A DNA stretch of 32,000 nt from a bacterium (GTDB taxonomy: Bacteria; UBP7; UBA6624; JBBIMK01), in assembly GCA_037444445.1 (NCBI GenBank), contig JBBIMK010000022.1, positions 1,014-33,013 on the forward strand, written 5' to 3'. Below, piece by piece: positions 1,260 to 21,758 of this stretch. Numbering within the stretch: the first letter of the stretch is position 1; each line of letters begins with the position of its first letter. Both the position numbers and the translations under genes were made by a program. Under the pieces are notes generated by a model. It did not search any database. It was not told the origin of the DNA and saw only the letters and a list, made by a program, of their open reading frames with translations.

Positions 1260-1296
1260 GGGTTCGGGACTTCTCTACCTCATCTCACACCTGAAG

Positions 1297-1319
1297 TTTT
1301 TGGGGGCTGACCCCGGAAA
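1297..1319. repeat. degenerate remnant of the GGGGTCTGACCCC REP family
   Basis: tttttgggggctgaccccggaaa. The core ggggctgacccc matches the REP core minus one base, and the T-rich/A-rich flanks are retained. The outer AATAA arms are absent. Intergenic. Confidence 0.4.
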
Positions 1320-1345
1320 TGCTCCTTCCACTGACTTCATAAAAT

Positions 1346-5486: not shown

Positions 5487-5508
5487 CCACACCATTTTCC
5501 TGAGGGTA

Positions 5509-7401: not shown

Positions 7402-7417
7402 GTGGGGGAGCGCCATA

Positions 7418-8437
7418 ATGAAGCCTATCTACTGGGACAATGGCATAGTGAAATTACTGGACCAAAGGCTTTTGCCTGATAAAGAAGTTTATGTGGAAGT
7501 CAAATCGGTGAAGGAGATGGCGAACGCACTGCGAGAGATGAGAATACGGGGTGCGCCCAATGTGGGTATTGCCGGGGCGTATGGCATCGTTCTGGGCATC
7601 TGGAACTACTTCGGCTCGGTGGGTGACCTGCCGGAGGTGTACCACTCGTGGTGCGAGTGGCTTCAGAAAGCCCGCCCCACCGCCTACAACCTTGCGCGAG
7701 CCCTCTCGCTTTTCCGCCCGTTGTTCCAGCCTGAAAACCTGAGTTCTACCTCTTTATCCGAATTAAAAGAGCAATCGTTATACATCGCTCACGGGTTGGT
7801 TCAAGCAGAGGAATCCGCCTGCGAACGCATTGGGACCCACGGAGAGCGTTTGATTCCACCGCGGGGTCGCATTCTCACCCTGTGCAACACGGGGAGCCTG
7901 GCCGCTTACGGTATCGGAACTGCCCTCGGCATCATCCGGAAAGCCCATCAAGCCCGGAAAAATATCTTCGTCTGGGTGATGGAAACCCGCCCCTGGCTCC
8001 AGGGCGCCCGCCTCACCGCCTGGGAACTCCAGCAGGATAAAATCCCCTTCCGTCTGATTGTAGACTCCGTCGCCGGCCAACTGTTCAGGGAAAAGCAAGT
8101 GGATTTAGTGTTGGTGGGCGCCGACCGAATCGCCCATAACGGCGATACCGCTAACAAAATCGGCACTTACCCCCTGGCCATCCTCGCCCACTACCACGAC
8201 ATCCCCTTCTATGTGGCTGCGCCCAGAAGTACCTTTGAGACCACCCGCCACGACGGCTCCCACATCCCCATAGAAGAACGCCCGGAAGAGGAAGTCCTCA
8301 CCTTCCACGGCATCGCCGTGGCACCCCCACAAACCAGAGCCTACAACCCCGTCTTTGACATCACCCCCGCCTACCTCATCACCGCCTTCATCACCGACAC
8401 CGGCGTCTATTCTCCCTCCCAGATTCCCGCCCTCTAA
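7418..8437 (+). CDS. mtnA: S-methyl-5-thioribose-1-phosphate isomerase (eIF-2B alpha/beta/delta family)
   Basis: 339 aa. Motifs read: VKLLDQRLLP, MRIRGAPNVGIAGAYG, LTLCNTGSLA, VGADRIAHNGDTANKIGTY. These are typical of MtnA and the IF-2B family. Confidence 0.85.
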   Translation: MKPIYWDNGIVKLLDQRLLPDKEVYVEVKSVKEMANALREMRIRGAPNVGIAGAYGIVLGIWNYFGSVGDLPEVYHSWCEWLQKARPTAYNLARALSLFRPLFQPENLSSTSLSELKEQSLYIAHGLVQAEESACERIGTHGERLIPPRGRILTLCNTGSLAAYGIGTALGIIRKAHQARKNIFVWVMETRPWLQGARLTAWELQQDKIPFRLIVDSVAGQLFREKQVDLVLVGADRIAHNGDTANKIGTYPLAILAHYHDIPFYVAAPRSTFETTRHDGSHIPIEERPEEEVLTFHGIAVAPPQTRAYNPVFDITPAYLITAFITDTGVYSPSQIPAL

Positions 8438-8480
8438 AATAACTGAGATTTTGGGGTCTGACCCCATTTCCTCAATTATT
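8438..8480. repeat. REP/REPIN-like palindrome, copy 1 (arms A/A)
   Basis: aataactgag-atttt-GGGGTCTGACCCC-atttc-ctcaattatt. Starts directly after the mtnA stop (8435-8437) and lies upstream of RayT-like gene 1. Confidence 0.85.
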
Positions 8481-8505
8481 TTATAATTGAAGTAGTGAGA
8501 TAGAG

Positions 8506-9450
8506 ATGCCTCGCCCACCTCGCCTGGAATTTGAGGGTGCCTTCTACCATATCTTTTCCAGAGGGAATAACCGCCAGCCCATCTTTTACTCCGATGATGA
8601 CCGCAACTTCTTCCTGAAGGTTCTGGAGGAATGCCGGGAGAAATTTCAGGTGAAAATGTTCGCCTTCTGCCTGTTAACCACTCATTTCCACCTGCTCCTG
8701 GAAACGGAAAAGCCGAACCTCTCCAAACTCATGCATGACTTCCTCACCCGGTATGCCGTCTACATCAAGAGGAAGTATGCTGCGGAAGGGCATATATTTC
8801 AGGGGCGATATCACGCTATTTTGTGCGACAAGGACGCATATTTTCTGGCATTGACCCGGTATATCCACTTGAATCCTTATCGTGCAGGGTTGTGCGATAG
8901 GGCATCTGACTACCCCTGGAGCAGTTTTTCCGCTTATTTTAACTTACCCTGCAAATATCCACTGAAAATTGACACCTCTCCTCTCCTTCAGGTAGCGGGA
9001 GGGAGAGAAGCCTATTTCCGTTTCCTCCAAGATGAAATCGAAGGGCTCACACCGATGTGGGAACCCAGGGTTCATCGTGGTTTTCTGGGCTCTGCTGAAT
9101 TTATAAAAAAAGTGCTGGAAAGGGTGAAACGCAAGGGATGGGAAAAGATGAAACAGCGGGCTCTTCACGGGAGGTTCTGGCATCTGGAGAAAACCGCTCT
9201 GGAGCAACTGGTGAACGCAGTCAGCCAGTTTTACCAGATAAGTCCGGAAATGATTCGGGGGGCCTCTCGGGTCAGGAAAATAGCCAGAGCTCGGGGAGTT
9301 TTAGCCTATCTGGCGAGGCAAAAACTGGGGCTCAGTTTATCTTCTCTGGCGGAATATCTGGGTGGAGGGGAAGGGAAACTGTATTACTGGATGAGCAAGG
9401 TTCAGAGAAATGAAAAATGGAAACAAGAGGTGGAGAGAATTCTAAAATAA
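8506..9450 (+). CDS. REP-associated tyrosine (HUH/Y1, IS200-like) transposase-like protein with C-terminal DnaA-C-like HTH region
   Basis: 314 aa. N-terminal FYHIFSRGNNRQPIF, HUH motif THFHLLLE, GHIFQGRYHAIL, catalytic-Tyr region RYIHLNPYRAGL...YPWSS. C-terminal ARARGVLAYLARQKLGLSLSSLAEYLG resembles the DnaA domain IV-type HTH. No clear SD. Confidence 0.8.
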   Translation: MPRPPRLEFEGAFYHIFSRGNNRQPIFYSDDDRNFFLKVLEECREKFQVKMFAFCLLTTHFHLLLETEKPNLSKLMHDFLTRYAVYIKRKYAAEGHIFQGRYHAILCDKDAYFLALTRYIHLNPYRAGLCDRASDYPWSSFSAYFNLPCKYPLKIDTSPLLQVAGGREAYFRFLQDEIEGLTPMWEPRVHRGFLGSAEFIKKVLERVKRKGWEKMKQRALHGRFWHLEKTALEQLVNAVSQFYQISPEMIRGASRVRKIARARGVLAYLARQKLGLSLSSLAEYLGGGEGKLYYWMSKVQRNEKWKQEVERILK

Positions 9451-9489
9451 CTGAAATTTTGGGGTCTGACCCCAAACTATGACATTATT
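9446..9489. repeat. REP/REPIN-like palindrome, copy 2 (arms A/B chimera)
   Basis: aataactgaa-atttt-GGGGTCTGACCCC-aaact-atgacattatt. The TAA stop of 8506-9450 (9448-9450) lies inside the left arm. Confidence 0.85.
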
Positions 9490-9541
9490 TTGTAACTTTT
9501 TCCCCCGAGAGGAGTTGATATAGTATTGGAGGTGAAATAAA

Positions 9542-10417
9542 ATGACGGAGAAAATCCGCCGAATTTTTTTCTTGATGGTGGCTACGGTCTTCCTGGGGTT
9601 ATGGGTGTTTTCCCTCCCACTACTGGCTGGAGAAGCGGGGAAAGGGGAACGGGAGAAGATGATCTGGTTTGGCTCCTATCTTCAGCCCGCCAACCCTGAC
9701 ATCGCTAAAGGATTGTTGGAGGAGATTCAGCCCACGCCAGAACAGGTGCAGAAAATTCAAGCCCTGTATGAGGAGATGGGAAAAAATTTCCCACCCCTGG
9801 TGAAATCTTATCTGGACGGAATGAAGCAAATCGGAAAAACCATTTCCAAAAAGCCCCTCCAGGAAAAAGAACTGGACAATTCTTTGAAAGCATTCTTTGA
9901 GAACGAGCGAAAAATCTTAAAATCTGAAATTTCCTTCTGGGAATCCTTCCTGAAGATTTTAGGGGATGAGAAAGGAACTCATTTTATGGGGGGCTACTTT
10001 CAGCAAGCGAAGGAGAAAGGGCTAAGCCCGGTGCCGTTCATCGGCGCCATTCTGGCGCCCTTGCCCGAGGACACAGGGTCTGCTCTTGCCTTCTTCATTG
10101 AACTCCAGCCGGAGCAGTTGAACCAACTTACCCCTCTTCTCCCCAAATATGTAGACTCCTTCACTGCTCTGATTCCCGAATATGTGAACGGGCTGTCCTC
10201 GCTTATGCAAGAGTTCCAGAAGGGCTTCCCTTTCGCCTGGGATAAAATCCAGAAGAAAGCGGATGGACTTGTGGACACAGAAGCGAAATTGGTTCATCAT
10301 GAAGTGAGCCTCTGGAAGGATTTGAACGGAATCCTCACGGAGGACCAGGTAGCCATGTACTGGCCTGTATTCTTCTGGGAGAAGGTGAAGATGTTTCTTC
10401 CGGCGCCTCAAAAATAA
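9542..10417 (+). CDS. secreted protein with repeated LTXXQ-like (Spy/CpxP-type) motifs
   Basis: 291 aa. Signal-peptide-like N-terminus RRIFFLMVATVFLGLWVFSLPLLAGEA. Three helical segments carry xTPEQ/LQPEQ/LTEDQ motifs. Strong SD GGAGGTG 7 nt upstream of the ATG. Confidence 0.5.
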   Translation: MTEKIRRIFFLMVATVFLGLWVFSLPLLAGEAGKGEREKMIWFGSYLQPANPDIAKGLLEEIQPTPEQVQKIQALYEEMGKNFPPLVKSYLDGMKQIGKTISKKPLQEKELDNSLKAFFENERKILKSEISFWESFLKILGDEKGTHFMGGYFQQAKEKGLSPVPFIGAILAPLPEDTGSALAFFIELQPEQLNQLTPLLPKYVDSFTALIPEYVNGLSSLMQEFQKGFPFAWDKIQKKADGLVDTEAKLVHHEVSLWKDLNGILTEDQVAMYWPVFFWEKVKMFLPAPQK

Positions 10418-10455
10418 CTGAGATTTTGGGGTCTGACCCCATTTCCTCAGTTATT
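10413..10455. repeat. REP/REPIN-like palindrome, copy 3 (arms A/A)
   Basis: aataactgag-atttt-GGGGTCTGACCCC-atttc-ctcagttatt. It fills the whole gap between convergent genes. TAA 10415-10417 (+ gene) and TAA complement 10454-10456 (- gene) both lie in its arms. Confidence 0.9.
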
Positions 10456-11062
10456 ATAAGATGACGGTGGAACCGGAGAAAAGAGAGGCAAAGCGTTCCG
10501 CATCCTTCCGGTTTCCCACAATGTCACCCCAGTGCATAGGGACTACGGTAGCGGGATGAAAAGTATTGGCTGCCTTCGCCGCCTCCTCAGCGGTCATCAC
10601 ATAAACGCCGGAGACGGGCAAGAGGGCGATATCAATATTCTTCAGCCCATTCATTTCCGGGATGGCATCCGTATCGCCGGCGTGATAGATTCTCTTGCCA
10701 CCCACCGTGACCACATAACCCACCCATTGATTTTTTTTCGGGTGAAAGTCCTTATTCAGGTTATAGGCGGGCACCGCTTCTACGGTGACATCGCCCACGG
10801 TGAGAATGTCGCCGGGCTTCACAAACTTCAAACTTCCCGGCAACCCTTTGCAATCCGGAGTGGCAATGATGGCGGTCTGCTCCGTCGCCACCTTCTTCAC
10901 ATCCTCCACCGAGAAGTGGTCAAAATGAGAATGAGTAATGAGAATCAGGTCAGCCTTCTCCCCACTGGCGATTTTCCACGGGTCAAAATAAATCACCTTC
11001 CCGCCCATCTTCAGGTGAAAGGAGGCATGCCCCAGCCATTTCAATCCTTCTATACCTGCCAT
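10454..11062 (-). CDS. metallo-beta-lactamase-fold metal-dependent hydrolase (UPF0173-like)
   Basis: 202 aa. HxHxDH motif LILITHSHFDHF, a later His/Asp (YHAGDTD, VPMHWGD), and the size typical of small MBL-fold hydrolases. Confidence 0.8.
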   Translation of the reverse strand: MAGIEGLKWLGHASFHLKMGGKVIYFDPWKIASGEKADLILITHSHFDHFSVEDVKKVATEQTAIIATPDCKGLPGSLKFVKPGDILTVGDVTVEAVPAYNLNKDFHPKKNQWVGYVVTVGGKRIYHAGDTDAIPEMNGLKNIDIALLPVSGVYVMTAEEAAKAANTFHPATVVPMHWGDIVGNRKDAERFASLFSGSTVIL

Positions 11063-11199
11063 TTTTCATCACCCTAATAAAGTATACAGGTCGCCTGTGG
11101 AGGTGACAAGGGGAGCGACAGGTTCGCGCCGACTTCATCGGGACGAGGCTTACTCATCCCCTGCACCTCAGTTGTGAAACCGGATGCTGAACCCTGGAC

Positions 11200-11226
11200 T
11201 TGACTTGTTTTAAACTATGATATAAT
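11200..11226 (+). promoter_or_regulatory. sigma70-type promoter with extended -10 for the surface lipoprotein gene
   Basis: TTGACT (11200-11205), a 15-nt spacer, then TGaTATAAT (TG at 11218-11219, TATAAT at 11221-11226). The predicted TSS near 11233 leaves a ~36-nt leader containing GGAGG (11256-11260) before GTG 11269. Confidence 0.5.
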
Positions 11227-11268
11227 ACTATTTTGATGCTCGTCATTCACCATACGGAGGTGGAAATT

Positions 11269-14200
11269 GTGAAAAAGGGGAGCAGAGTTTTTTTCATCGG
11301 TGGGCTGGTGATTCTGTCGGTTTTCACGGGGTGCTGGGGGAATAACGCGCCGTTTCCACAACCCCCTGCCCCTGTGGCGTTTCTATCGGCTCTACCCGGT
11401 AATGGGCAGGCTATCCTGGACTGGAATGATTCCCCCGACCCCCATTTTGCGGGATATAATCTCTATCGCGCTCTGATTTCGGGAGGTCCCTATACGAAAC
11501 TCAACGCCACCCTGTTGTTAGGCTCTACTTACACCGATACTGGTTTGACCAACGGCACCACCTATTATTATGTGGTTCGTGTGATGAATAAGCAGGGTAT
11601 GGAGGGTCCGCCATCCGACCCAATCTCCGTGACGCCGAGGACGGATTTCACCCCTCCAGCCGCCCCTCAAGGGTTCACCGCCTTCGCCGGGGACAATTTC
11701 GTCCTCCTGAACTGGGCTCCCAACAACGAGCCCGACCTCTCCCATTACTTCCTTTACCGGAATACTTTCCCGGGCATTCCACAAACAGAAGCCTTCAGGA
11801 TTGCTCGCATCAACCCCGCGAACTCTTACAACGACGCCTCCGTCACCAACGGCACCACCTACTGGTATTGCGTCAGCGCTGTGGACACTTCTAATAACGA
11901 GAGCCCCTGCTCTATTGTTTTAATGGTAACCCCCGTATTAGACATCGTGGACCCGGTGGTGACGGTTCTTTCACCTAACGGCGGAGAGGTCATAGATAAC
12001 GGCTCGCCCACCCTACTCCAGTGGACTTCTTCGGATAATATCGGTGTTTTGGCCCAGGAGATTCGTTTATCCACCGATGGCGGTAATACTTATCCCACCG
12101 TGATTGCCACGGGTTTGCCCGGCGCCCAGCAATCCTACACCTGGAATGTGCCGAGCAATTTAGCCAGCACCACCGCCCGGATAAAAGTCATCGCCACGGA
12201 TGCTTCTGGAAATTCCGGTGAGGATGCTTCCGACGCCAACTTCACCATTCGGGACGGCGTTCCACCCTCTATACAGGTGAATTCCCCCAACGGGGATGAA
12301 ACATTTAATGCAGGCTCCCCGATGACCATTCAATGGACTTCTTCCGATAATATCGGCGTAACCGAGCAGAATGTTTTCCGCTCCTCCGATGGCGGAGCAA
12401 ACTGGCAGGCGGTGGAAGCCTGCCAGAACCTGCCCGGCAATGTTCAATCCTGCACTGTAACCCCGCCAGCAGATTTGAATAGCACCACTATGCGGGTGAA
12501 AGTAGAAGCAAAAGACGCAGCCGGCAACTCCAGCGAGGACGCCTCGGATGGCAACTTCACCATCCAGGATGTCACGAACCCCCTTGTTCAGGTTACTTAT
12601 CCCAACGGGGGTGAATCCTTCAATAACAATCAGCAGGTGGACATCACCTGGACCTCCAGCGACCCGAACCAGAGCAGTGGCTGGGGGCCCGCTGCGGTTG
12701 CAACCCAGACCGTGGCTTACTCCACGGATAATGGACAAACCTGGACTGACATAGGGGACTGTATCGGGCTTCCTGACACCGTTTTCAACTGCCCCTGGAC
12801 TGTTCCCAATGATGTGGCAACGACCCAGGCACTTGTGCGGGTCACCGTCACCGACACCGCCAATAATACCACTTCCGACTCTTCCGATGGCACTTTCACC
12901 ATCAATGACATCATTAACCCCACCGTCGCTGTGACTTCGCCCAACGGGGGTGAAACATTTAATGCAGGCTCCCCGATGACCATTCAATGGACTTCTTCCG
13001 ATAATATCGGCGTAACCGAGCAGAATGTTTTCCGCTCCTCCGATGGCGGAGCAAACTGGCAGGCGGTGGAAGCCTGCCAGAACCTGCCCGGCAATGTTCA
13101 ATCCTGCACTGTAACCCCGCCAGCAGATTTGAATAGCACCACTATGCGGGTGAAAGTAGAAGCAAAAGACGCAGCCGGCAACTCCAGCGAGGACGCCTCG
13201 GATGGCAACTTCACCATCCAGGATGTCACGAACCCCCTTGTTCAGGTTACTTATCCCAACGGGGGTGAATCCTTCAATAACAATCAGCAGGTGGACATCA
13301 CCTGGACCTCCAGCGACCCGAACCAGAGCAGTGGCTGGGGGCCCGCTGCGGTTGCAACCCAGACCGTGGCTTACTCCACGGATAATGGACAAACCTGGAC
13401 TGACATAGGGGACTGTATCGGGCTTCCTGACACCGTTTTCAACTGCCCCTGGACTGTTCCCAATGATGTGGCAACGACCCAGGCACTTGTGCGGGTCACC
13501 GTCACCGACACCGCAGGCTTGTCATCCTCCGACACCTCTGACGCTACTTTCACCATCGTGGATTCCATCCCCCCCAGTGTGACGGTGAATGCCCCCAACG
13601 GCGGTGAAAATGTTCCCGGCGGCGCTACTTATAACATCCAGTGGACCTCCAGCGATAACATCAGCATCACCGACCAGGATGCCTATGTTTCCACCGATTC
13701 CGGCGCCAACTGGGTGGCTATTTCTGAATGCCAGAATGTGGTGGGTCAGCAGTGCGCCTGGAATACACCCGCCATCAACAACACCACCTCCCGGGTTCGG
13801 GTTTGCGTCAATGATGGCGTCAACCCTGAAGTCTGCGACGATTCTGATGCGGATTTTTCTATCCTCACTGACACGACTCCACCGGAAACCACGATTACCT
13901 CCGGACCTGCCGAAGGCTCCTTCTCCAATCAAAATACCGCCACCTTTGAATTTACCGGTAATGACCCACCACCCAATCCTTCTGGTATCAACCGTCTTGA
14001 GTGCAACCTGGACAACGCTGGCTGGAATACCTGCACCTCACCTTTTACTACGCCGGCCCTCACGGATGGACTCCATAACTTCCAGGTCCGGGCTGTGGAT
14101 AACCTGGGCAACATAGATGCAACCCCGGATTTCAGAAACTGGACCGTGGATACTACACCTCCCGACCTCACCATCACCGCTCCCACTGCGAACGGCCATG

Positions 14201-15423
14201 TTGCCGGTGGAACAGGCTATCAAATCCAATGGACCTCCTCCGATGCAGTCTCTGGCCTGGCAGGCCACTCCAGCCTCCAGTATTCCACGGACAGCGGAAC
14301 GAACTGGACCGACATCCCCGAGGCGGAGTGTTCGGGCTACACCGCTCCCACCGCCCAGGATTGCACCTGGAATGTGCCGGCGAATCTCTGGACGCCGACC
14401 GCCACCGCAAAACTTCGCCTCACTGCTACAGATAATGCAGGAAACACCCGAACCTCTGAATCTGAACTCTTCTTATTTGACGATGTGAGCCCACCCACAC
14501 CACCCACTGTGATTGCTCCCAACGGTGGAGAAATGGTGGATGCCCCCTCCACCTATACCATTGAGTGGACCTCGCCCACGGATAATGTGGGAATCCAGAA
14601 CTGCGACATCCTGCTATCCACCGATGGCGGAGCCACCTACCCCACCACCATCGCCGCCGGCATCCCCTGCTCCACCTACGCCTGGAGTGTGAACCCTGAC
14701 CTCTTCACCGGCAAAGCCCGTATCCGCGTGGTCGCCCACGACCTCGCTGGTAATACCAGCGATGACGATTCTGACGCCAACTTCATTATCGTTTTCTACG
14801 AACGCTGGGAAAGTGAAGCAGACCCCACTGCATTTGGAGAACAACACCCCACAACCTTCCTAATGCGTTGGTGGCAATTCCTTTTTGGCGGTGATGCTAA
14901 CTGTCCAGGACCTCCAACCAATCCTTATAGATGGTATTTTGGAGATGACAATGGCGTCTTTGGTGCCCCACAGGGTAACCACTCTCCGAACTGGTTCCGC
15001 TGGGATGTGTGTAACAACGACCCGAATTACTATTATCCACCGGGTGATCAACTTGGCCTCGTTGCCGGGCCATTTGACTTCACCGATGCCACAGCGGGAA
15101 CTTTGAACCACAACTCCCAGTGGGCTTTTGACAACGAGGATATAGGCAGATTGCTCATCAGTGCTCCGCTGGCTTCCCCTACATCGGCGTGTAACACTGC
15201 TGCCACTTATTATTTGCTGGACCACATCACTGGCACAAGCCCGAACTTCGGAACGGCCTTTGAATCTATTTCTATTGACCTTTCCACCATCACCACTCCG
15301 GAGGGACCCGTTCTCGGCACCACCCGATGTATCGGTTTTATCACCTTTGATATAGATGGTGATGGAGACGGAGGAATCGGGTTCGGCTGGTTTATTGACG
15401 ACATCCGTGTAACCAAAAACTGA
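11269..15423 (+). CDS. large repeat-rich surface lipoprotein (FN3-like, many Ig-like SPNGGE/STDGG-type repeats, C-terminal jelly-roll-like domain)
   Basis: Track ORF 11233-15423. Preferred start is GTG 11269, 8 nt after GGAGG. Signal peptide plus lipobox-like VFTGC. Two FN3-like modules (YNLYRA...TTYYYVV, YFLYRN...TTYWYCV). About 10 repeats of ~105 aa (SPNGGE..W.SSDNIGV...STDGG..W...V.A.D.AGN). One ECNLD...C.SP...HNFQVRAVDNLGN Ig-like domain. C-terminus ends GFGWFIDDIRVTKN. Confidence 0.8.
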   Translation: MKKGSRVFFIGGLVILSVFTGCWGNNAPFPQPPAPVAFLSALPGNGQAILDWNDSPDPHFAGYNLYRALISGGPYTKLNATLLLGSTYTDTGLTNGTTYYYVVRVMNKQGMEGPPSDPISVTPRTDFTPPAAPQGFTAFAGDNFVLLNWAPNNEPDLSHYFLYRNTFPGIPQTEAFRIARINPANSYNDASVTNGTTYWYCVSAVDTSNNESPCSIVLMVTPVLDIVDPVVTVLSPNGGEVIDNGSPTLLQWTSSDNIGVLAQEIRLSTDGGNTYPTVIATGLPGAQQSYTWNVPSNLASTTARIKVIATDASGNSGEDASDANFTIRDGVPPSIQVNSPNGDETFNAGSPMTIQWTSSDNIGVTEQNVFRSSDGGANWQAVEACQNLPGNVQSCTVTPPADLNSTTMRVKVEAKDAAGNSSEDASDGNFTIQDVTNPLVQVTYPNGGESFNNNQQVDITWTSSDPNQSSGWGPAAVATQTVAYSTDNGQTWTDIGDCIGLPDTVFNCPWTVPNDVATTQALVRVTVTDTANNTTSDSSDGTFTINDIINPTVAVTSPNGGETFNAGSPMTIQWTSSDNIGVTEQNVFRSSDGGANWQAVEACQNLPGNVQSCTVTPPADLNSTTMRVKVEAKDAAGNSSEDASDGNFTIQDVTNPLVQVTYPNGGESFNNNQQVDITWTSSDPNQSSGWGPAAVATQTVAYSTDNGQTWTDIGDCIGLPDTVFNCPWTVPNDVATTQALVRVTVTDTAGLSSSDTSDATFTIVDSIPPSVTVNAPNGGENVPGGATYNIQWTSSDNISITDQDAYVSTDSGANWVAISECQNVVGQQCAWNTPAINNTTSRVRVCVNDGVNPEVCDDSDADFSILTDTTPPETTITSGPAEGSFSNQNTATFEFTGNDPPPNPSGINRLECNLDNAGWNTCTSPFTTPALTDGLHNFQVRAVDNLGNIDATPDFRNWTVDTTPPDLTITAPTANGHVAGGTGYQIQWTSSDAVSGLAGHSSLQYSTDSGTNWTDIPEAECSGYTAPTAQDCTWNVPANLWTPTATAKLRLTATDNAGNTRTSESELFLFDDVSPPTPPTVIAPNGGEMVDAPSTYTIEWTSPTDNVGIQNCDILLSTDGGATYPTTIAAGIPCSTYAWSVNPDLFTGKARIRVVAHDLAGNTSDDDSDANFIIVFYERWESEADPTAFGEQHPTTFLMRWWQFLFGGDANCPGPPTNPYRWYFGDDNGVFGAPQGNHSPNWFRWDVCNNDPNYYYPPGDQLGLVAGPFDFTDATAGTLNHNSQWAFDNEDIGRLLISAPLASPTSACNTAATYYLLDHITGTSPNFGTAFESISIDLSTITTPEGPVLGTTRCIGFITFDIDGDGDGGIGFGWFIDDIRVTKN
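12297..12860 (+). repeat. 564-bp exact direct repeat, copy 1 (within surface lipoprotein gene)
   Basis: Row-by-row comparison shows 12297-12860 is identical to 12951-13514 (offset 654 bp = 218 codons). Near-identity extends back to 12286 with one mismatch (12296 a versus 12950 g). Confidence 0.9.
12951..13514 (+). repeat. 564-bp exact direct repeat, copy 2
   Basis: Identical to 12297-12860. The 90 bp that follow each copy (12861-12950 versus 13515-13604) are diverged. Track ORFs 12548-12754 and 13202-13408 are identical, consistent with this. Confidence 0.9.
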
Positions 15424-15459
15424 ACATTCTCCCGCTGTTTTTTAGCGGGACAGGTTGCC

Positions 15460-15497
15460 CTGAGATTTTGGGGTCAGACCCCAAAATCTCAGTTATT
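15460..15497. repeat. REP/REPIN-like palindrome, copy 4 (perfect 16+1+16 hairpin; terminator-like)
   Basis: ctgagattttGGGGTCaGACCCCaaaatctcag followed by ttattttt. The left outer AATAA arm is missing. It lies 37 nt after the stop of the surface lipoprotein gene. A strong stem plus a T-rich tail on the + strand resembles an intrinsic terminator. A weaker hairpin cccgct-gtttttt-agcggg sits at 15431-15449. Confidence 0.85.
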
Positions 15498-15619
15498 TTT
15501 GCCTGTTGCCACTGAAAGCCTTTCGGGTGTAAACATTCTATCCTCCTTCTACCTCCTTTCCATTCTTTTTCTACTTCATTTTGCTCTACGCTTTTGTAGT
15601 AGAAGGACGGGTGGTAGAA

Positions 15620-16963
15620 ATGGGAGATAAAGAGGGAAAAGGGAATGGAGAAAAGGGAAAGGGGAATGGAGGAGGAATACTCGCTTTATGGATGTTTCCA
15701 CTGTGGGCGCTGGTTTCTTGCAGCGGTCCTACTGGCATCTCGCCTGGTCCTTTTCCCAGTTATGTAGAGGGGTATGTGCTGAGGGGTGGGAGTATTTCAC
15801 CCTCCGGTGAAGGCTCGCCCTCTTCGGCGAACTCCTGCGGTTCTCCTGCAGGCTATGAGCCTATAGCGGGAGCGAGCGTGAGCCTTCTGGCTTCCTCTTA
15901 CTTCACCACTACGAATTCTTCTGGATATTTTCGGCTGTATGCTCCACAGGGCAGTGAGACCCTTTCCGTATCCGGGACGGGCTATAAAACCACCACTTAT
16001 CCCGTAAATATACCGGAAACGGGGCCAGCAGGGTTCGGCACTCAGAATTGCATTTCTCTGCCGAGAGATGATACGACAGCGTTTGCAACTTCAATTTCAC
16101 AGGTGGATACGAGTGTGCCTTCCGCGATTGGAGTGTTTTCTGCTGTGGCGGATGCCACGGGAAAGCAGGTTCTGGGTATGCCTGCAAACTCATTCTCCGT
16201 CCGCATAGGGGATGAGAACGGGCTCAATTTCCAGCCCATTCCTATCCTCTCCGTTCAGCAACTTACAGGCTCGGGAGAAGCGTATGAGCCATTTTCCGCC
16301 GTCCTCGTTCTGGATGCCAGCGATTCTATGAATAACCCTGCAGGGGGTGGCAAGAGAAAAATTGACCTGGCGCGGGAGGCGGCAGAGTATTTCGTCCAGC
16401 ATAAAGCGAGTGGCGATGAGGTTGCCCTGATTATCTTTGACCACCGCATCACCTTCCATCAGGACTTCACCACGAATTCAGCGGTCCTTCTGCAGGCTTT
16501 GAAATCGTATGACCCCGACGACCCGGGATATAAATGGGGAGGGAGCACCGCTTATTACGATGCCGCCTACGAGGGAACCCAGCGCCTGAACCCTCGCTCA
16601 ACACGGAGAAAATATAATATCACCCTGACAGATGGCCTGGACAATTCCAGTGTTCACACCTATATGGAAGTGATACTGACCGCTCACAATGCGGGCATAC
16701 CGGTTTATACCGTGGGCGTGGGACCGGATGCGGATAAGCAGATTTTGAAGAACATCGCCGACGGCACGGGCGGGCAGTTCACTGAAGTGAACGATGCCAC
16801 GAAAATCCCCGATGCCTTCGCCGGCATCCTCACCCAGGCGCAGTATACCTACCGGCTTGTGCTGAATACTTCAGGACTGTCCACCGGTCAGCACACCATA
16901 GAACTGGCGGTGAACTTCGCCGGGATAACCGGCACCGCCTACCAGATTTTCACCCAGCCCTGA
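15620..16963 (+). CDS. von Willebrand factor A (VWA) domain lipoprotein with N-terminal CarboxypepD_reg-like domain
   Basis: Track ORF 15581-16963. Preferred start is ATG 15620. Lipobox ALVSC. IAGASVSLL...TNSSGYFRLYAP...TGYKTTT resembles a carboxypeptidase-regulatory-like beta-sandwich. VWA MIDAS motif VLVLDASDSM plus ITLTDGLDNSS and VYTVGVG. Confidence 0.75.
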   Translation: MGDKEGKGNGEKGKGNGGGILALWMFPLWALVSCSGPTGISPGPFPSYVEGYVLRGGSISPSGEGSPSSANSCGSPAGYEPIAGASVSLLASSYFTTTNSSGYFRLYAPQGSETLSVSGTGYKTTTYPVNIPETGPAGFGTQNCISLPRDDTTAFATSISQVDTSVPSAIGVFSAVADATGKQVLGMPANSFSVRIGDENGLNFQPIPILSVQQLTGSGEAYEPFSAVLVLDASDSMNNPAGGGKRKIDLAREAAEYFVQHKASGDEVALIIFDHRITFHQDFTTNSAVLLQALKSYDPDDPGYKWGGSTAYYDAAYEGTQRLNPRSTRRKYNITLTDGLDNSSVHTYMEVILTAHNAGIPVYTVGVGPDADKQILKNIADGTGGQFTEVNDATKIPDAFAGILTQAQYTYRLVLNTSGLSTGQHTIELAVNFAGITGTAYQIFTQP

Positions 16964-17007
16964 AATAACTGAACTTTTGGGGTCTGACCCCAAAAGGTGA
17001 CATTATT
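16964..17007. repeat. REP/REPIN-like palindrome, copy 5 (arms A/B chimera)
   Basis: aataactgaa-ctttt-GGGGTCTGACCCC-aaaag-gtgacattatt. Begins the base after the TGA stop (16961-16963) of the VWA gene and lies upstream of RayT-like gene 2. Confidence 0.85.
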
Positions 17008-17030
17008 TCGCGATATAATTTAGAATCAGG

Positions 17031-17972
17031 ATGCCGCGTTCACTTCGCATAGAATTTGAGGGGGCCTTTTATCACATTTACTCCCGAGGGAATAACCGTC
17101 AACCCATCTTTCGTGATGATAATGACTTCCTCTATTTCTTAAAAAATCTGGAAAAGCAGAGGGAAAAATTTCGGGTCCGGTTATATGCCTTTTCCCTTTT
17201 GAACACTCACTTCCATTTCCTACTGGAAACGGAGAAGGCGAATCTATCCCGAATGATGCACGATTTTTTGACAAAATATGCGGTCTATTTCAAGAAAAAG
17301 TATGCGGCGGAAGGGCATATATTTCAGGGGCGTTATCAAGCCATTCTGTGCGACCGGGATTCCTATTTACTGGCGCTGAGCCGATATATTCACTTAAACC
17401 CCTATCACGCAGGTCTGTGCGATGACCCTCTCCAGTATCCCTGGAGCAGTCTACCCGTCTACCTGGGTATGCCCTGCAAGTATTCATTAAAGGTGGAAAC
17501 AGCGCTGATTTTGCAGTTGATGGGAGGGGAGGCTCATTATCTAAAATATATTCGGGATGAAATCCAGGGGGCGAGCAAGCCATGGTGTCCAGCGCCCCGT
17601 TATTCTTTTTTAGGGTCGGGTGAATTCGTGAAAGGAGTTCTGGAGAAGTTAAAGGAGCGGAGGTGGGAAGCCCGTCATCTGGATAGTCTTCAGAAAAAGT
17701 TTGTGCTGGAGACAGGAGAGACCCCATTTAGAAATCTGGCCCGCCAAGTTTGCGAATTTTATCATATACCTGAGGAAAGCCTTTTCAGTAAGAGCCGAAA
17801 GAGAAAGGTGGTAAAGGCTCGCGGGGTTCTGGCTCTTCTATCAAAGGAAAGACTGGGGTTAAAACTCTCGGGTTTGAGTGAGAAATTGGGAATGGGGAAA
17901 AGAACGCTGCTCCGGTGTATGGAGAGGATAAGCAAGGATGAAAGGATAAAGAAGGATATGGAGGTGATTTAA
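17031..17972 (+). CDS. REP-associated tyrosine (HUH/Y1, IS200-like) transposase-like protein, paralog 2
   Basis: 313 aa and colinear with 8506-9450. The N-terminal ~150 aa are highly similar by eye (FYHIYSRGNNRQPIF, NTHFHFLLE, GHIFQGRYQAIL, RYIHLNPYHAGL...YPWSS). The C-terminal half is more diverged but keeps the ARGVLALLSKERLGLKLSGLSEKLG HTH-like segment. Confidence 0.8.
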   Translation: MPRSLRIEFEGAFYHIYSRGNNRQPIFRDDNDFLYFLKNLEKQREKFRVRLYAFSLLNTHFHFLLETEKANLSRMMHDFLTKYAVYFKKKYAAEGHIFQGRYQAILCDRDSYLLALSRYIHLNPYHAGLCDDPLQYPWSSLPVYLGMPCKYSLKVETALILQLMGGEAHYLKYIRDEIQGASKPWCPAPRYSFLGSGEFVKGVLEKLKERRWEARHLDSLQKKFVLETGETPFRNLARQVCEFYHIPEESLFSKSRKRKVVKARGVLALLSKERLGLKLSGLSEKLGMGKRTLLRCMERISKDERIKKDMEVI

Positions 17973-17973
17973 G

Positions 17974-18018
17974 AATAATGTCCATGTTTGGGGTCTGACC
18001 CCAAAAGGTGACATTATT
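17974..18018. repeat. REP/REPIN-like palindrome, copy 6 (arms B/B)
   Basis: aataatgtcc-atgttt-GGGGTCTGACCCC-aaaag-gtgacattatt. Fills almost the whole gap between stop 17970-17972 and the next ATG at 18028. Confidence 0.85.
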
Positions 18019-18027
18019 TGTTTCAGG

Positions 18028-18891
18028 ATGAAAAAAATAGGTTTTATCGGGCTGGGGAAGATGGGGAAGCCGATGGCACTGAACCTTTATCAAGCAGGTT
18101 TTCCTCTGATGGTGTATAACCGCACGCGGGCGAAGACGAAAGAGTTTGAGGAGAAAGGGGTGCCGGTGGCAGGCTCCATAAGGGAGTTATCCTCCTCCTC
18201 TCAAGTTATCATCACGATGTTGACCGATGAGCCCACGGTGGAGGAGGTGATACGCGGGGAGGGGGGAGTTTTATCCGGTGCATTACCTGAAACGATTCTG
18301 ATAGATATGACAACTGTCTCTCCATCTTTCTCACGAAAGATGCATGAATATCTGCGTCTGAAGGGCTTGAAATTTCTGGATGCGCCGGTTTTAGGGAGTG
18401 TTCGCCCGGCGGAGGAAGGAACCCTCATTATTATGGTGGGCGGGGAAAAGGAAGTGTATGAGGAATGCCGGCCCATTTTTGAGGCTCTGGGGAAGGATAT
18501 TTTCTACCTGGGGGGAAGCGGAATGGGCACTTCTATGAAATTAGTTGCCAACCTTCTATTGGGCGTTTTTATGAGTGGGACCGCTGAGGCATTCCATCTG
18601 GCGAAAAAGGAGGGGCTATCGCCCGAGCAAGTGGCTCAGGTTCTTTCCGCCTCTGTAATTATCTCTCCATCGCTGAAAGCAAAGTTTCCTCTTTTCTTGA
18701 AAGACCGGTATGAGCCTCATTTCTCACTACGGCACATGAGGAAGGACCTTCGGCTGATGCTGGATACTGCTGACGAATTAAATATAGAACTGCCTCTGGT
18801 GAAGGAGGCTCATCATCTTTATTCCGAGGCGGTGGAGGAAGGGTACGGCGACCTGGATTATTCCGCGGTGGTCAAGTATCTGGCGAGGTAA
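18028..18891 (+). CDS. NAD(P)-dependent oxidoreductase, 3-hydroxyisobutyrate dehydrogenase / 6-phosphogluconate dehydrogenase-like family
   Basis: 287 aa. Rossmann motif KIGFIGLGKMGKPMALNL, FLDAPVLGS, and MKLVANLL, typical of the HIBADH/tartronate semialdehyde reductase family. Confidence 0.8.
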   Translation: MKKIGFIGLGKMGKPMALNLYQAGFPLMVYNRTRAKTKEFEEKGVPVAGSIRELSSSSQVIITMLTDEPTVEEVIRGEGGVLSGALPETILIDMTTVSPSFSRKMHEYLRLKGLKFLDAPVLGSVRPAEEGTLIIMVGGEKEVYEECRPIFEALGKDIFYLGGSGMGTSMKLVANLLLGVFMSGTAEAFHLAKKEGLSPEQVAQVLSASVIISPSLKAKFPLFLKDRYEPHFSLRHMRKDLRLMLDTADELNIELPLVKEAHHLYSEAVEEGYGDLDYSAVVKYLAR

Positions 18892-18936
18892 ATAATGTCC
18901 ATATTTGGGGTCAGGCACCAAAAGGTGGCACATATT
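18891..18936. repeat. REP/REPIN-like palindrome, copy 7 (arms B/B, degenerate core)
   Basis: aataatgtcc-atattt-GGGGTCaGgCaCC-aaaag-gtggcacatatt. Overlaps the last base of stop 18889-18891 (+ gene) and the last 8 codons plus stop of the minus-strand gene ending at 18911. Confidence 0.7.
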
Positions 18937-19714
18937 TCTCGAGGAACAGGCGCAGTCGTTCCCGGAACACCCCTTCGGACATAAAGAGAAAGGTCCCATA
19001 AGCAGGCGTCTTGCACTCAGGCACCACCCGCTCCACGGCACCGGAAGGGAAAGCAGAGATAAACTTTTCCACCTCCACAAATCCCGGGGCATCCTTGCAC
19101 GCTCCCACCCACACGGGCACCCCTTTCCACCGGGAAACATTCTTCGCCATCAGTCCCTCCTCCCACCGAAACAGCATCGTCCTCGGCGTGGCAAACGCCA
19201 GCGCTCCTGGCTTCCACACCCCGGGTAAATACGCCACCACCTGCGCCGATGTCCAGCCAGACGCCACAATCCCCACCCGTCTCAAATCCAGATAATCCAG
19301 TCCTTTCAGTCCCTGCCACATCGCCTCAAAATCTTTCCCGATTCCTTCCAGCACCTCCCGGGGAAGATTCGCCGCCCGCTGAAGTTTCACCTCCTGATGC
19401 ACCGTCTCCCCATGCCCGCGAAGGTCAAAAACCACCACCGCATACCCCGCCTTCGTCAGCACCCCCGGTAAATGCTCCGTGCCAATGCTCCAGTCCACCT
19501 TACTCCCCCCATAATCGTGAACCAGAAAAATCACCGCAAACGGAGGCTTCACACGGTCCGTCTCATCCCCCTTCAATGTGGGAAGATAAATCCGATAAGA
19601 CAGGGTGAACCCATCCACCGTTTTGATGACCGGAAGTGCAGAGCCCTTTTTCTCCCCTTCTGCACCTGAAAAAGCCATTAGAAGAACGAGTGCCATCACT
19701 GCCCGCTTCATCAT
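18911..19714 (-). CDS. secreted alpha/beta-hydrolase-fold protein (dienelactone hydrolase-like), nucleophile motif not canonical
   Basis: Track ORF 18911-19774. Preferred start is ATG 19714 (MMKRAVMALVLLMAFSGA signal peptide), preceded by GGTGAAGAGG, which avoids overlap with the upstream gene stop at 19731. Motifs AVIFLVHDYGGS and VVVFDLRGHGET fit the fold. The expected GxSxG position reads VASGWTS. Confidence 0.6.
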   Translation of the reverse strand: MMKRAVMALVLLMAFSGAEGEKKGSALPVIKTVDGFTLSYRIYLPTLKGDETDRVKPPFAVIFLVHDYGGSKVDWSIGTEHLPGVLTKAGYAVVVFDLRGHGETVHQEVKLQRAANLPREVLEGIGKDFEAMWQGLKGLDYLDLRRVGIVASGWTSAQVVAYLPGVWKPGALAFATPRTMLFRWEEGLMAKNVSRWKGVPVWVGACKDAPGFVEVEKFISAFPSGAVERVVPECKTPAYGTFLFMSEGVFRERLRLFLEKYVPPFGA

Positions 19715-19730
19715 CCTCTTCACCACCCTT

Positions 19731-21758
19731 TTATGGCACAAACTCCGGGTCCACAAGTGACAACCCGATGTCATAATCCCCCGTCATCGTTCTGCTCCTG
19801 TCCCGATAGGCTACCAGAATTTCATCCACCGCTGTCCCCGCTCTCGGCATATGCTGCTCCCCGCGCTCGCTGGTAATCACAAATTCGCCCAGCACCCCAC
19901 CGGCGGGATTCCACATCGCACCAAAAATGTCAAACCCGGAATCTGCCACATTCCGCGTATCCATCCAGGCAACAAGGAATTTCTCCGTCTGCGGGTGATA
20001 CGCCACCGAGGTGAGGATTTTTGTGGATGGATAGGTGCTGATGGGAAAAACTGGCTCCACCGGCGGGGAGCCATCCGGGGGAACCAGACGGGCGTAAATG
20101 TCGTAATTCACCCCGGAAATCCGATGAAACGCCACAAGGAATCCGTAGGGAGATGGGGAGATGGAGGGTGCGCCAGCACTCTCCTCAAAATCCGCCACCA
20201 GAAATGAACCCCCAACTCCTCGTCCATCGCTGTCCAGCGCTAAGCCATATATGTCCGTCCCCGTAACCCCTGCCTGCTCATACACCATCAGGGCAGTTCG
20301 CGTGAAAGAGTTTACGGAAACCACCGGCTGGGAGGACGTTCCAGGACCGGAAACCAGCTGCCACGGGGGGGAAGCGGATAGGGCGGGACCGGTGAGCACG
20401 GAGGAGTATATCCTCCCCCCATCCACCCACACCGCAATCACCCGGTCCTCAGAACTCCCCATCCGAACCCGACTGCTGGCATTCAAACCCACACTCACCT
20501 CAATCATTCCACCTTCCACATACGGTGGACCGTCCTTCTTCACCGCCACGGCATAAATCCCGCTATTCCCGGAACCATCCACAGACTCAAATGCCACCAC
20601 AAATCGTCCCCAAACTCCCGGATACGCCACGGAAGGGCGGAGGAAATTCCTCCCCCCATCCTGTGCAATCGGAAACATCTCCCCCTGCGGGATTCCATCC
20701 CGGCTGACCCATTGTCCCCAGACTTCCCATCCTGTGCCCGCACTGCGTTGAAAAACCACAAGGAACCGGTCTTCACCAAACCGCACCGCAGGCTCCCGTT
20801 CATCCTCCGTTGAAATGACCCCGTATCTTCCGGGGCGCTCCGCCCGCTCTTCACTCCCACCACTCTCATTCCCCGCCACATCCACTGCGGTCACCACCAC
20901 ATAATACAATTTCCCATTCTCCAGGTTCCGAACCCGGACGGGAAAAGAAGGAGGAGCGGGAAGCAGGGATGCGTTCCATCGGCAATTGCAGGTCGCCGGG
21001 TCAATCCCTGCCTGCCCGGAGATATACACATTGTATCCCGCTACTCCATTTGCATCGGTTGACCCACTCCATTGAAGGAGAAGGCGCCGGTCTGCCGGGG
21101 TTAAACTCACCGTGGGCGCCCCTGGTGGCGTCTGGTCCACCACAAACACAAACTCCGCAGGCGTCGCATCCTCATTCCCCAATCCATCCCGCGCCCACAC
21201 CCGGAATGTGTGCTCCCCTTCTGTTAGATTGCCCATCGTCAACGGGCTTTCACAGGGCGTAACCTCCTGCCCATTGTGCTCACAGCGAAAGGTCGCTCCC
21301 TGCTCCGGAGAGCGAAACTGAAAAATCACCTGCGCCTGATGGATAAAACAAGGCTGAACAAGATTGCACGGTCCTGCCACGAGTTCCGTCTCCGGTCCTG
21401 TCCGGTCCACCACAAACACAAACTCCGCAGGCGTCGCATCCCTCTGTCCACCTCGCACCGCGCGAACACGAAAGGTATGCTGTCCCTCACCCAGACCGGA
21501 TATGCTCAGGGAATACGGGCTGGTGCAGGGGGAAAACTCCCCACCATCCAGCGCGCACTCAAACTGTGCCCCGGAAGGCGTGGAGGTGAAAGAAATCACC
21601 ACCTGCCCATCCCGGAAAACCGTCTGATTCGGCTCCCAACCGGTAATCTGTGTGTCCGGAACCACCGGCGGCGCGGAACCCCCACCTCCCCCACAACCCG
21701 TAAACACCACTCCCGCAAATACCACAACTCCAATAACCTTCCCTATCTTCATCCCCAT
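19731..21758 (-). CDS. surface lipoprotein: two Ig-like domains, one FN3-like domain and a ~7-repeat beta-propeller-like C-terminal region
   Basis: 675 aa. Signal peptide plus lipobox VFTGC followed by GGGGG. Two ~90-aa domains (FECALDGGEFSPCTSP...HTFRVRAVRGG..DATPAEFVFVVD; FRCEHNGQEVTPCESP...HTFRVWARDGLGNEDATPAEFVFVVD). FN3-like GYNVYISG...KLYYVVVTAVDVAGNES. Seven ~50-aa repeats of pattern P.V......FLV(A/V)(W/F)......DI(Y/F)G. Confidence 0.7.
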   Translation of the reverse strand: MGMKIGKVIGVVVFAGVVFTGCGGGGGSAPPVVPDTQITGWEPNQTVFRDGQVVISFTSTPSGAQFECALDGGEFSPCTSPYSLSISGLGEGQHTFRVRAVRGGQRDATPAEFVFVVDRTGPETELVAGPCNLVQPCFIHQAQVIFQFRSPEQGATFRCEHNGQEVTPCESPLTMGNLTEGEHTFRVWARDGLGNEDATPAEFVFVVDQTPPGAPTVSLTPADRRLLLQWSGSTDANGVAGYNVYISGQAGIDPATCNCRWNASLLPAPPSFPVRVRNLENGKLYYVVVTAVDVAGNESGGSEERAERPGRYGVISTEDEREPAVRFGEDRFLVVFQRSAGTGWEVWGQWVSRDGIPQGEMFPIAQDGGRNFLRPSVAYPGVWGRFVVAFESVDGSGNSGIYAVAVKKDGPPYVEGGMIEVSVGLNASSRVRMGSSEDRVIAVWVDGGRIYSSVLTGPALSASPPWQLVSGPGTSSQPVVSVNSFTRTALMVYEQAGVTGTDIYGLALDSDGRGVGGSFLVADFEESAGAPSISPSPYGFLVAFHRISGVNYDIYARLVPPDGSPPVEPVFPISTYPSTKILTSVAYHPQTEKFLVAWMDTRNVADSGFDIFGAMWNPAGGVLGEFVITSERGEQHMPRAGTAVDEILVAYRDRSRTMTGDYDIGLSLVDPEFVP
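21134..21171 (-). repeat. 38-bp exact repeat (copy 1) marking tandem Ig-like domain duplication
   Basis: ggtccaccacaaacacaaactccgcaggcgtcgcatcc is identical to 21404-21441, 270 bp (90 codons) away. On the coding strand it encodes DATPAEFVFVVD. Confidence 0.85.
21404..21441 (-). repeat. 38-bp exact repeat (copy 2)
   Basis: Identical to 21134-21171. Confidence 0.85.

Follow-up and report, generated by a model that had tools for sequence, protein, structure and literature searches.

A 32,000-nucleotide stretch of contig JBBIMK010000022.1 (assembly GCA_037444445.1), from a bacterium of the GTDB lineage UBP7; UBA6624; JBBIMK01, was analysed at its full length and is referred to here as the window, position 1 being its first letter. 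It encodes two HUH/Y1 transposase-like proteins, RayT1 and RayT2, and each gene lies between two copies of a short palindrome. We consider it likely that the locus is a pair of TIRtrons, that is, TIRYT-type Y1/HUH genes with their terminal motifs, accompanied by four gene-less copies of the ends. It is not a classical REP/RAYT system (REP, repetitive extragenic palindrome; RAYT, REP-associated tyrosine transposase) with GTAG-tagged repeats, but a TIRtron whose end motifs became full REP-like hairpins. The observations behind this are a repeat family, the fold and motifs of the two proteins, the canonical position of the core before each gene, covariation between the halves of the core, and recent gain or loss relative to sister contigs.

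When GGGGTCWGACCCC was sought in the window with at most one mismatch, seven matches were found against 0.09 expected, and none of 100 shuffles reached seven. Six cores are exact, starting at 8453, 9461, 10428, 15470, 16979 and 17990, and these six, one variant and one remnant make up eight copies, within 19 kb, of a palindrome of approximately 45 bases with a core of 13 nt. A chance pattern or an assembly artefact is thus hardly credible, given this excess and given that independent Logan contigs from run SRR11582170 contain RayT1 (98% identity) and RayT2 (96%), each together with the palindromes on either side. The sister-strain Logan contigs break inside palindromes, for which the window copies alone could account. 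The palindromes, to which no strand is assigned, are as follows.

E0, 1293..1323: degenerate remnant; core GGGGGCTGACCCC at 1302-1314, a one-mismatch match
E1, 8435..8483: upstream of RayT1; core 8453-8465; MtnA stop codon TAA (8435-8437) inside the left arm
E2, 9443..9492: downstream of RayT1; core 9461-9473; RayT1 stop codon TAA (9448-9450) in the left arm
E3, 10410..10458: orphan between convergent genes; core 10428-10440
E4, 15460..15501: orphan; core 15470-15482, central base A; perfect 15-bp stem
E5, 16961..17009: upstream of RayT2; core 16979-16991; stop codon TGA of the VWA gene (16961-16963) adjoins the left arm
E6, 17972..18019: downstream of RayT2; core 17990-18002
E7, 18890..18936: variant; hybrid core GGGGTCAGGCACC (18907-18919), two changes from GGGGTCWGACCCC

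The elements are imperfect palindromes of 40-48 nt, built of outer AAATAA/TTATTT feet, a variable middle block and, at the centre, the inner TTTTGGGGTC-W-GACCCCAAAA core. Folded as single-stranded DNA, the six intact copies reached -9.6 to -16.1 kcal/mol with z scores of -4.6 to -6.6 (E1, -10.6 kcal/mol, z = -4.6; E2, -9.6, z = -4.7; E3, -12.7, z = -5.5; E4, -16.1, z = -6.5; E5, -13.6, z = -6.6; E6, -13.1, z = -5.3). The first-pass annotation of this DNA had suggested folding the element as a check; stable folding holds for these six copies, while E7 folds weakly (z = -2.6) and E0 no better than shuffles (z = -0.7). That annotation had also counted seven clear copies with an invariant core; six are exact, but the copy at 18891, our E7, reads GGGGTCAGGCACC and belongs to the family by its arms, which are clearly of the same type. 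The remnant it placed near 1297 was found again as E0. The arms of E2 belong to two different subtypes.

Intergenic DNA makes up 5.2% of the window under a gene model of long open reading frames (ORFs) and Pfam matches, and yet the centres of seven of the eight palindromes are intergenic (P about 8e-9). The right half of E7 overlaps the 3' end of the minus-strand ORF 18911-19774. The earlier statement that almost every gap between 8.4 and 18.9 kb is occupied is borne out by seven of eight gaps between genes. Left arms contain or adjoin the stop codons of upstream genes, as E7 does with the HIBADH stop codon TAA (18889-18891), and E3 fills the whole convergent gap in which it stands and provides both stop codons (TAA, 10415-10417, and TTA on the minus strand, 10454-10456). 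Half of the eight copies stand away from the RayT genes in the 32 kb of this organism that were examined. No GTAG/CTAC or CGTC/GACG tag adjoins the arms of E1-E7, whose feet are AAATAA/TTATTT, and there are no REP doublets (REPINs), all eight copies being single with no pair within 100 nt. Scans of the window with Rfam and for tRNAs gave no matches, and the 13-nt core string was absent from the literature searched.

At E7, the stop codon of the minus-strand alpha/beta-hydrolase ORF (18911-19774) falls in the loop of the palindrome, and the C-terminus of HIBADH diverges from those of its relatives a few codons ahead of the start of the element. E7 appears to have remodelled the ends of both neighbouring genes (window 18889-18936).

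The two genes that lie between palindromes encode proteins with the same architecture.

RayT1, 8506..9450, plus strand: 314 aa; HUH/Y1 nuclease domain at approximately residues 1-145, a linker, and a DnaA-domain-IV-like helix-turn-helix (HTH) at approximately 230-300
RayT2, 17031..17972, plus strand: 313 aa; paralog with the same two-domain architecture

The bracketing of both genes by palindrome copies, described in the first-pass annotation as a REPtron layout, holds. The proteins are 55% identical and their DNA approximately 72% identical over the first 300 nt, and the genes are 8.5 kb apart. Both match Pfam Y1_Tnp (PF01797) over the N-terminal 120 residues, as the annotation had anticipated, with 49.5 and 41.5 bits against a cut-off of 23 (E 6e-13 and 2e-10), and both match Bac_DnaA_C (PF08299) near the C-terminus with 44.6 and 35.8 bits against 31.5. 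The designation as RayT-like HUH/Y1 genes was therefore right with regard to the catalytic domain but had missed the C-terminal HTH. The NCBIfam model 'REP-associated tyrosine transposase' (NF047646, cut-off 80) was passed by RayT1 with 83.5 bits. In an alignment of 32 family members, H60 and H62 (the HUH motif), Y119 within RYIHLNP, and W138/S139 are invariant, which confirms the expected catalytic tyrosine; in the alignment to E. coli TnpA-REP (4ER8), HFH corresponds to HMH and RYIHLNP to DYIYINP. Sequence similarity to the E. coli protein is marginal (E 0.04-0.1 with a single sequence and 1e-5 with a profile). An AlphaFold2 model of RayT1 (pLDDT 90) had as its top Foldseek match 4er8_A, the RayT bound to its REP hairpin (E 1e-7, template-modelling (TM) score 0.70), followed by the TnpA proteins of IS608 and ISDra2.

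The C-terminal domain resembles the DNA-binding domain of DnaA (3PVP, TM 0.74; E 1e-12 in a profile search against DnaA domain IV). It is unlikely to read DnaA boxes, however, because no TTATNCACA-like box was visible in the palindrome arms when the sequences were inspected by eye, and because the base-contacting 'DHTTV' stretch of DnaA is replaced in the family consensus of the alignment. The HTH may instead bind duplex ends or the promoter; a suggestion from the literature is that it targets replication forks (Quentin et al., PMC6006769).

This combination of domains has been described. Long Y1 proteins with a Bac_DnaA_C-like C-terminus constitute subclass 2.1.2 of TnpA-REP, and subclass 2.1 was equated with the 'TIRYT' of Di Nocera et al. 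(Quentin, Siguier, Chandler & Fichant 2018, PMC6006769). TIRYT genes are longer than classical RAYTs and lie between terminal inverted repeats sharing GGGGWSAS, the whole being termed 'TIRtrons', and among the repeats are self-complementary ones that make up dispersed families of moderate abundance (Di Nocera, De Gregorio & Rocco 2013, PMC3733652). TIRYT/subclass 2.1 is reported to be the second largest RayT-like subclass, present in 14.9% of the strains surveyed, and no REP-like sequences were found near its genes by automatic or manual searches (PMC6006769). Within the literature that we searched, TIRYT is named in computational work only, and no TIRYT experiments are reported there. The placement of the two genes in this subclass was based on how their domains are arranged, on the terminal motif and on the names 'RayT' or 'transposase' given to homologs. 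The claim of a REP/RayT system is accordingly modified: the repeat family is real and the proteins are of RayT type, but they belong to TIRYT/subclass 2.1.2 and the repeats carry no GTAG tag.

The terminal motif was examined family-wide in 80 metagenomic loci encoding relatives at 32-43% identity. In 50 of 75 loci the coding strand carried GGGGWSAS, nearly always as GGGGTCAG, upstream of the start codon at a distance of 44-61 nt (mode 53); the complement CTGACCCC fell on the stop codon or up to 60 nt after it in 36 of 73. The background was 0.16 per kb. In the window, the GGGG of the upstream core begins 53 nt (RayT1, E1) and 52 nt (RayT2, E5) before the ATG, and the downstream CTGACCCC begins 16 nt (RayT1) and 23 nt (RayT2) past the stop codon, the right end of RayT1 at 16 nt being within the family range. 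Moreover, GGGGTC-W-GACCCC is GGGGTCAG overlapped with CTGACCCC. Given these positions and this overlap, the window palindromes are end motifs of the family extended to full palindromes.

In the wider TIRYT family (L121-L200), TTGACA lies approximately 12 nt past GGGGTCAG (for example in L142 and L162) and a -10-like box often ends approximately 6-7 nt before the ATG, which suggests, from sequence, a promoter built into the left end and leaderless mRNAs. GGGGTCAG is iterated two to four times at 17-25-nt spacing before the gene in L128, L156, L163, L165, L168 and L192, and CTGACCCC after the gene in L162, L165 and L197; these iterations look like arrays of protein-binding sites. A TGA stop codon is embedded in the right-end motif, as C-TGA-CCCC, in 22 of 73 loci (L121-L200), so that gene and element end together there.

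In a neighbour-joining tree, RayT1 and RayT2 grouped with their closest database relatives, P0002, P0004 and P0005 (46-55% identity). The loci of these three also carry a palindrome of approximately 40 nt just upstream of the start codon, with AATAA-type outer feet as in the window, and L001 has in addition a palindrome copy at the 3' end of the gene and an orphan copy. The cores of the clade differ, however, being GGTGCCAGGCACC in L001 and L002 and CTGGGTCAGACCCAG in L003. Across 14 clade elements the two halves of the core covary, GGGGTC/GACCCC in some and GGTGCC/GGCACC in others: core position 2 is T-A in seven and C-G in five elements, core position 4 is G-C in seven and T-A in five, and arm positions show two to three pair types. 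In RayT1, RayT2 and these three closest relatives, then, the family end motifs have been completed into 40-48-nt palindromes able to extrude as hairpins.

L001 (Logan SRR11582170) places a third paralog, P0002, which is 55% identical, in the same run as near-identical copies of RayT1 and RayT2. Its palindromes lie at L001 2821-2870, 3806-3841 and 4622-4670 and have a core of their own, GGTGCCWGGCACC; the P0002 ORF reads through the downstream palindrome, and the GC content is 49.6% vs 51.7%.

A scan of species-representative genomes for KTTTGGGGTCWGACCCCAWW returned at least 117 loci, each of at most 8 kb. Among the matches listed, TTTGGGGTCWGACCCCA lies in the middle of longer palindromes, each type specific to its lineage; they were seen in Halomonas, Fictibacillus, Collinsella, several metagenome-assembled genomes (MAGs) of Actinomycetota, and also in Patescibacteria and Clostridia, often with several copies per genome. 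In 206 unique core occurrences from many phyla among these matches, positions 10-16 from the centre paired in 43-54% of cases versus 25-28% after shuffling. A RayT homolog is encoded in seven of the listed loci, of which there are at least 117, and in six of the seven the core stands on both sides of the gene. Among the matches listed, RayT homologs of shorter length (180-257 aa) have this 13-nt core beside their genes in Halomonas, Collinsella and a Clostridia MAG, and a DnaA_C-type C-terminal domain was undetected in them by Pfam or by the family profile. It is probably the Y1 part, then, that recognises the core. The flanking palindromes in Collinsella are each complementary within themselves.

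Three Halomonas loci (L016, L061 and L114) carry core doublets of the form GGGGTCAGACCCC-N12-GGGGTCTGACCCC, with opposite central bases. The doublets flank 218-224-aa RayT homologs on both sides in L016 and L114, whereas in L061 a doublet is found downstream only, with a single core upstream; doublets also occur elsewhere within the three loci.

Promoter-like sites overlap the upstream palindromes of both genes in the window.

8458..8487, plus strand: promoter-like site of RayT1, CTGACC-18 nt-TATAAT, whose -35 hexamer falls within the E1 core, in its right half
16997..17026, plus strand: promoter-like site of RayT2, GTGACA-18 nt-TAGAAT; the right arm of E5 contains its -35 hexamer, and its -10 hexamer ends 5 nt before the ATG

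Each matches the consensus at 10 of 12 positions and is the best site in its region; a promoter function is predicted from this consensus match. The placement of both -35 hexamers inside palindromes favours the view that the palindromes are mainly regulatory sites in duplex DNA (operators for the HTH, terminators or mRNA stabilisers) spread by ordinary recombination or selection, as do the TTGACA approximately 12 nt past GGGGTCAG in relatives, the iterated GGGGTCAG resembling binding-site arrays, and the position of copies at gene ends, among which E4 has a terminator-like score. We hold this to be very unlikely as the main explanation. Six of seven copies have T-runs before and A-runs after the stem on both strands, which is the reverse of an intrinsic terminator; the arms vary among lineages and yet stay complementary, which is more in keeping with a structure than with an invariant duplex operator; short RayT homologs without an HTH recognisable by Pfam or the family profile have this core at their flanks too; and one of the palindromes differs between the window and a relative by a clean 47-48-bp indel which, lacking flanking homology, resembles transposition. 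Autoregulation through the overlapping promoter is nevertheless plausible as an additional function. Intrinsic terminators as such were considered for the palindromes and rejected for most copies on account of the reversed T- and A-runs, a terminator-like score being obtained only for E4 and for the minus strand of E2.

Comparison with sister contigs gave evidence of recent gain or loss. The JGI contig L201 encodes an MtnA homolog of 84% identity and is syntenic with window positions 1361-11056 at approximately 79% nucleotide identity; other MtnA homologs (Bipolaricaulota, Omnitrophota and others) reach only approximately 52%, the host lineage being sparsely sampled. L202 is from the same metagenome sample (81-83% identity), and L201 and L202 presumably represent one sister organism of approximately 80% nucleotide identity. 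In L201, MtnA is followed by a single solo palindrome (AATAACACCACTTTTGGGGTCAGGCACCAAAAGTGGTATGAT), which carries the same hybrid core as E7, GGGGTCAGGCACC, and then directly by the next gene, RayT1 being absent. The window thus differs from L201 by a 1008-bp unit consisting of RayT1 and one palindrome, bounded by the 35 nt of left arm plus core that E1 and E2 have in common. E3 is also absent from L201, as a clean indel of 47-48 bp without target duplication, and the convergent genes overlap there by 23 nt. At the site of RayT2, L202 has the VWA gene, an unrelated 161-nt spacer and the HIBADH gene; E5, RayT2 and E6 are absent and no solo palindrome is found there. E7 is absent both from L202 and from a third relative, L203. 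Where the two can be compared, the window has seven intact palindromes and one remnant, and the relative one of each; the remnant of the relative, TTTGGGGTCAGG (L201 3975-4000), stands in the same intergenic gap as E0 and is its counterpart. From the L201/L202 sample, no RayT exceeding 55% identity to RayT1 came to light. These presence/absence differences support recent mobility of the palindromes and the genes, in agreement with the earlier view of a recently active system.

A possibility considered and rejected was that RayT2 occupies an anciently conserved locus. L002 and L003 have neighbours resembling those of RayT2 (a giant Ig protein, a hydrolase and a 600-740-aa protein, at 37-41% identity), but the closer relative L202 is without RayT2.

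The window and L201 cease to be syntenic at E0 (window 1293-1323), the degenerate palindrome by an aminotransferase gene, and the genes upstream differ; a rearrangement breakpoint may coincide with this old element. In the gap downstream of HIBADH, at the site of the window's E7, L202 has three tandem units of approximately 50 nt (L202:2465-2620; CCCCCACCTGTATCCTCCCCCTTTTCTGACGAAAAAGGGGAGGGAAAATA), each with a hairpin, which constitute a different REP-like family.

Several points weigh against interpreting the locus as TIRtrons with hairpin ends that have moved recently. Firstly, RayT2 scores only 65.5 bits on NF047646 and thus falls under the cut-off of 80 that RayT1 passes. Secondly, the upstream cores read GGGGTCTG on the coding strand, the canonical GGGGTCAG being found on the opposite strand. 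In L001-L003 and Collinsella the central base is A upstream and mostly T downstream, whereas the upstream cores of the window have T on the coding strand, so that if the central base matters their polarity is inverted. Thirdly, the exact pattern of A-type arm plus core was unmatched in JGI metagenomes, and the covariation of core halves fits selection for a hairpin, fold-back copying or symmetric binding of duplex DNA alike. Fourthly, the indels were compared without an outgroup, so that gain in the window and loss in the relative both fit, and loss of RayT1 by recombination between the 35-nt direct repeats of E1 and E2 would look identical. Finally, for TIRYT/subclass 2.1 proteins we infer binding, strand specificity, the site of cleavage, a single-stranded mechanism and the role of the HTH by analogy.

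The first-pass annotation had called the system domesticated. A classical domesticated REP/REPIN-RAYT system, in which RayT genes that are single-copy and inherited vertically keep up a large population of cognate REPs across the genome, as happens in E. coli and Pseudomonas, would account for the layout of a gene between palindromes, for the extragenic position of the palindromes, for RayT1 passing the NCBIfam RayT model and for E. coli RayT as the top structural match. We nevertheless think it quite unlikely. A relative of approximately 80% identity has neither gene at the orthologous site, and stable vertical inheritance, and with it the term domesticated, is therefore disfavoured. In addition, no GTAG or CGTC tag stands beside the palindromes, which are single instead of REP doublets; the DnaA_C HTH places the proteins in subclass 2.1.2/TIRYT, reported to be without REP-like sequences (PMC6006769); and RayT2 is under the model cut-off.

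Comparison with the individual systems leads in the same direction. E. coli RayT (TnpA-REP, YafM; 4ER8) is like the proteins studied here in fold (TM 0.70 over its 165-residue chain), in the aligned HUH motif and catalytic tyrosine, and in that its gene is flanked by cognate extragenic palindromes; it differs in being a 165-aa protein without HTH, and its REPs, which number hundreds, are 5' GTAG-tagged. The Pseudomonas REPIN-RAYT system likewise combines short extragenic palindromes with a Y1 enzyme whose gene lies between two copies and which is presumed to mobilise them in trans, but REPINs are REP doublets and RAYTs are single-copy and vertically inherited, in contrast to the single palindromes and the two paralogs within 8.5 kb in the window (Bertels & Rainey 2011; Bertels et al. 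2017, PMC5581495). The IS200/IS605 elements IS608 and ISDra2 have the Y1/HUH fold (Foldseek matches 2-25), carry a hairpin at either end on one and the same strand, and make no target-site duplication, like the E3 indel; their TnpA, however, is a dimer of approximately 130-150-aa subunits without HTH, whereas the RayTs here have 314 and 313 aa, and the copies of an insertion sequence in one genome hardly differ, in contrast to the mere 55% identity between RayT1 and RayT2. With TnpA-REP subclass 2.1.2 the window proteins have in common the Y1/HUH core, a Ser motif past the catalytic Tyr region (PWSS here) and the Bac_DnaA_C-like HTH; unlike what was reported for subclass 2.1 (PMC6006769), the genes of the window and of L001-L003 are flanked by REP-like hairpins, and there are orphan copies too. 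Like TIRtrons, finally, the locus has a core of GGGGTCAG/CTGACCCC that fits GGGGWSAS at the family's canonical distance from the start codon; unlike them, it has at both ends a complete palindrome of 40-48 nt that forms a hairpin, one core serves two paralogs of 55% identity that lie 8.5 kb apart, and the upstream core of the window has T rather than A on the coding strand.

The hybrid elements raise a further alternative, namely that the centre of the palindrome is a recombination site at which RayT cuts the apex of the hairpin (the TCWGA loop) and swaps the halves, the palindromes being both products and landing pads. A gene between two palindromes would then be an excisable, re-integrable cassette, in a manner that resembles loop-nicking HUH Rep proteins or attC recombination more closely than transposition of the IS608 type. 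E2 and E5 are indeed half-swapped, their left and right arms being of different subtypes. A GGGGTC left half-core is joined to a GGCACC right half-core in E7 and, independently, in the L201 solo palindrome, GGCACC being the half-core of the sister systems in L001 and L002, and the window and L201 differ by exactly the RayT1 cassette plus one palindrome, with a single palindrome left. The RayT1 indel is bounded by a 35-nt direct repeat, however, and its junction is not placeable at the centre; homologous recombination or gene conversion among repeats yields the same hybrids; the Collinsella palindromes, self-complementary as units, show no sign of half-exchange; the RayT2 site in the relative is an unrelated 161-nt spacer without a solo palindrome; and characterised Y1 transposases cut beside hairpins and not in loops. 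With only approximately 14 elements examined, we regard apex exchange as unlikely; if true, it would be a hairpin-centred, site-specific-like mobility pathway undescribed for Y1 transposases. Insertion of a gene into the centre of an existing palindrome was rejected as a candidate in its own right and retained only within the unlikely apex alternative, since complementarity of the outer arms gave it no support and the junction is ambiguous over 35 nt.

Returning to the TIRtron interpretation, the HUH/Y1 paradigm of IS608 TnpA and E. coli RayT serves as the model for the steps that we propose. The protein would bind the hairpin form of the palindrome on transiently single-stranded DNA, Tyr119 would cleave with the assistance of the HUH-bound metal, and the enzyme would rejoin the DNA. 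Short palindromes could in this way be copied or moved in trans, in the manner of miniature inverted-repeat transposable elements, and possibly gene cassettes too, with new copies landing in intergenic DNA at gene ends. Where the upstream palindrome overlaps the gene's own promoter, binding could autoregulate expression.

The interest of the locus lies in its pairing of enzyme and substrate: two intact paralogs, one 13-nt palindromic core and arms that clearly form hairpins, together with sister systems showing compensatory core changes (GGGGTC vs GGTGCC) and empty-site comparisons that reveal recent gain or loss. It gives clear candidate hairpin substrates for a subclass said to lack REP-like sequences, and makes it possible to test the binding and cutting of hairpins, the position of the cut, the contribution of the DnaA-like HTH, and whether REP-like repeats arise by fusion of the two ends of a Y1 element. 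A core common to RayT-flanking palindromes of Halomonas, Collinsella, Clostridia and this lineage suggests a protein-DNA recognition code unusually conserved for a repeat family. General knowledge of such systems is unchanged by this locus.

Two other genes of the window contain long repeats. A 3354-aa ORF on the minus strand (21866-31930), with repeats of approximately 290-340 nt, occupies the last third of the window, and past 19 kb there are therefore neither intergenic sites nor palindromes. The gene for a 1396-aa Ig/BNR-repeat protein (11233-15423) has internal repeats of 654 nt, and an 87-nt stretch within it is 100% identical between 12538-12624 and 13192-13278, which suggests a recent internal duplication or conversion.

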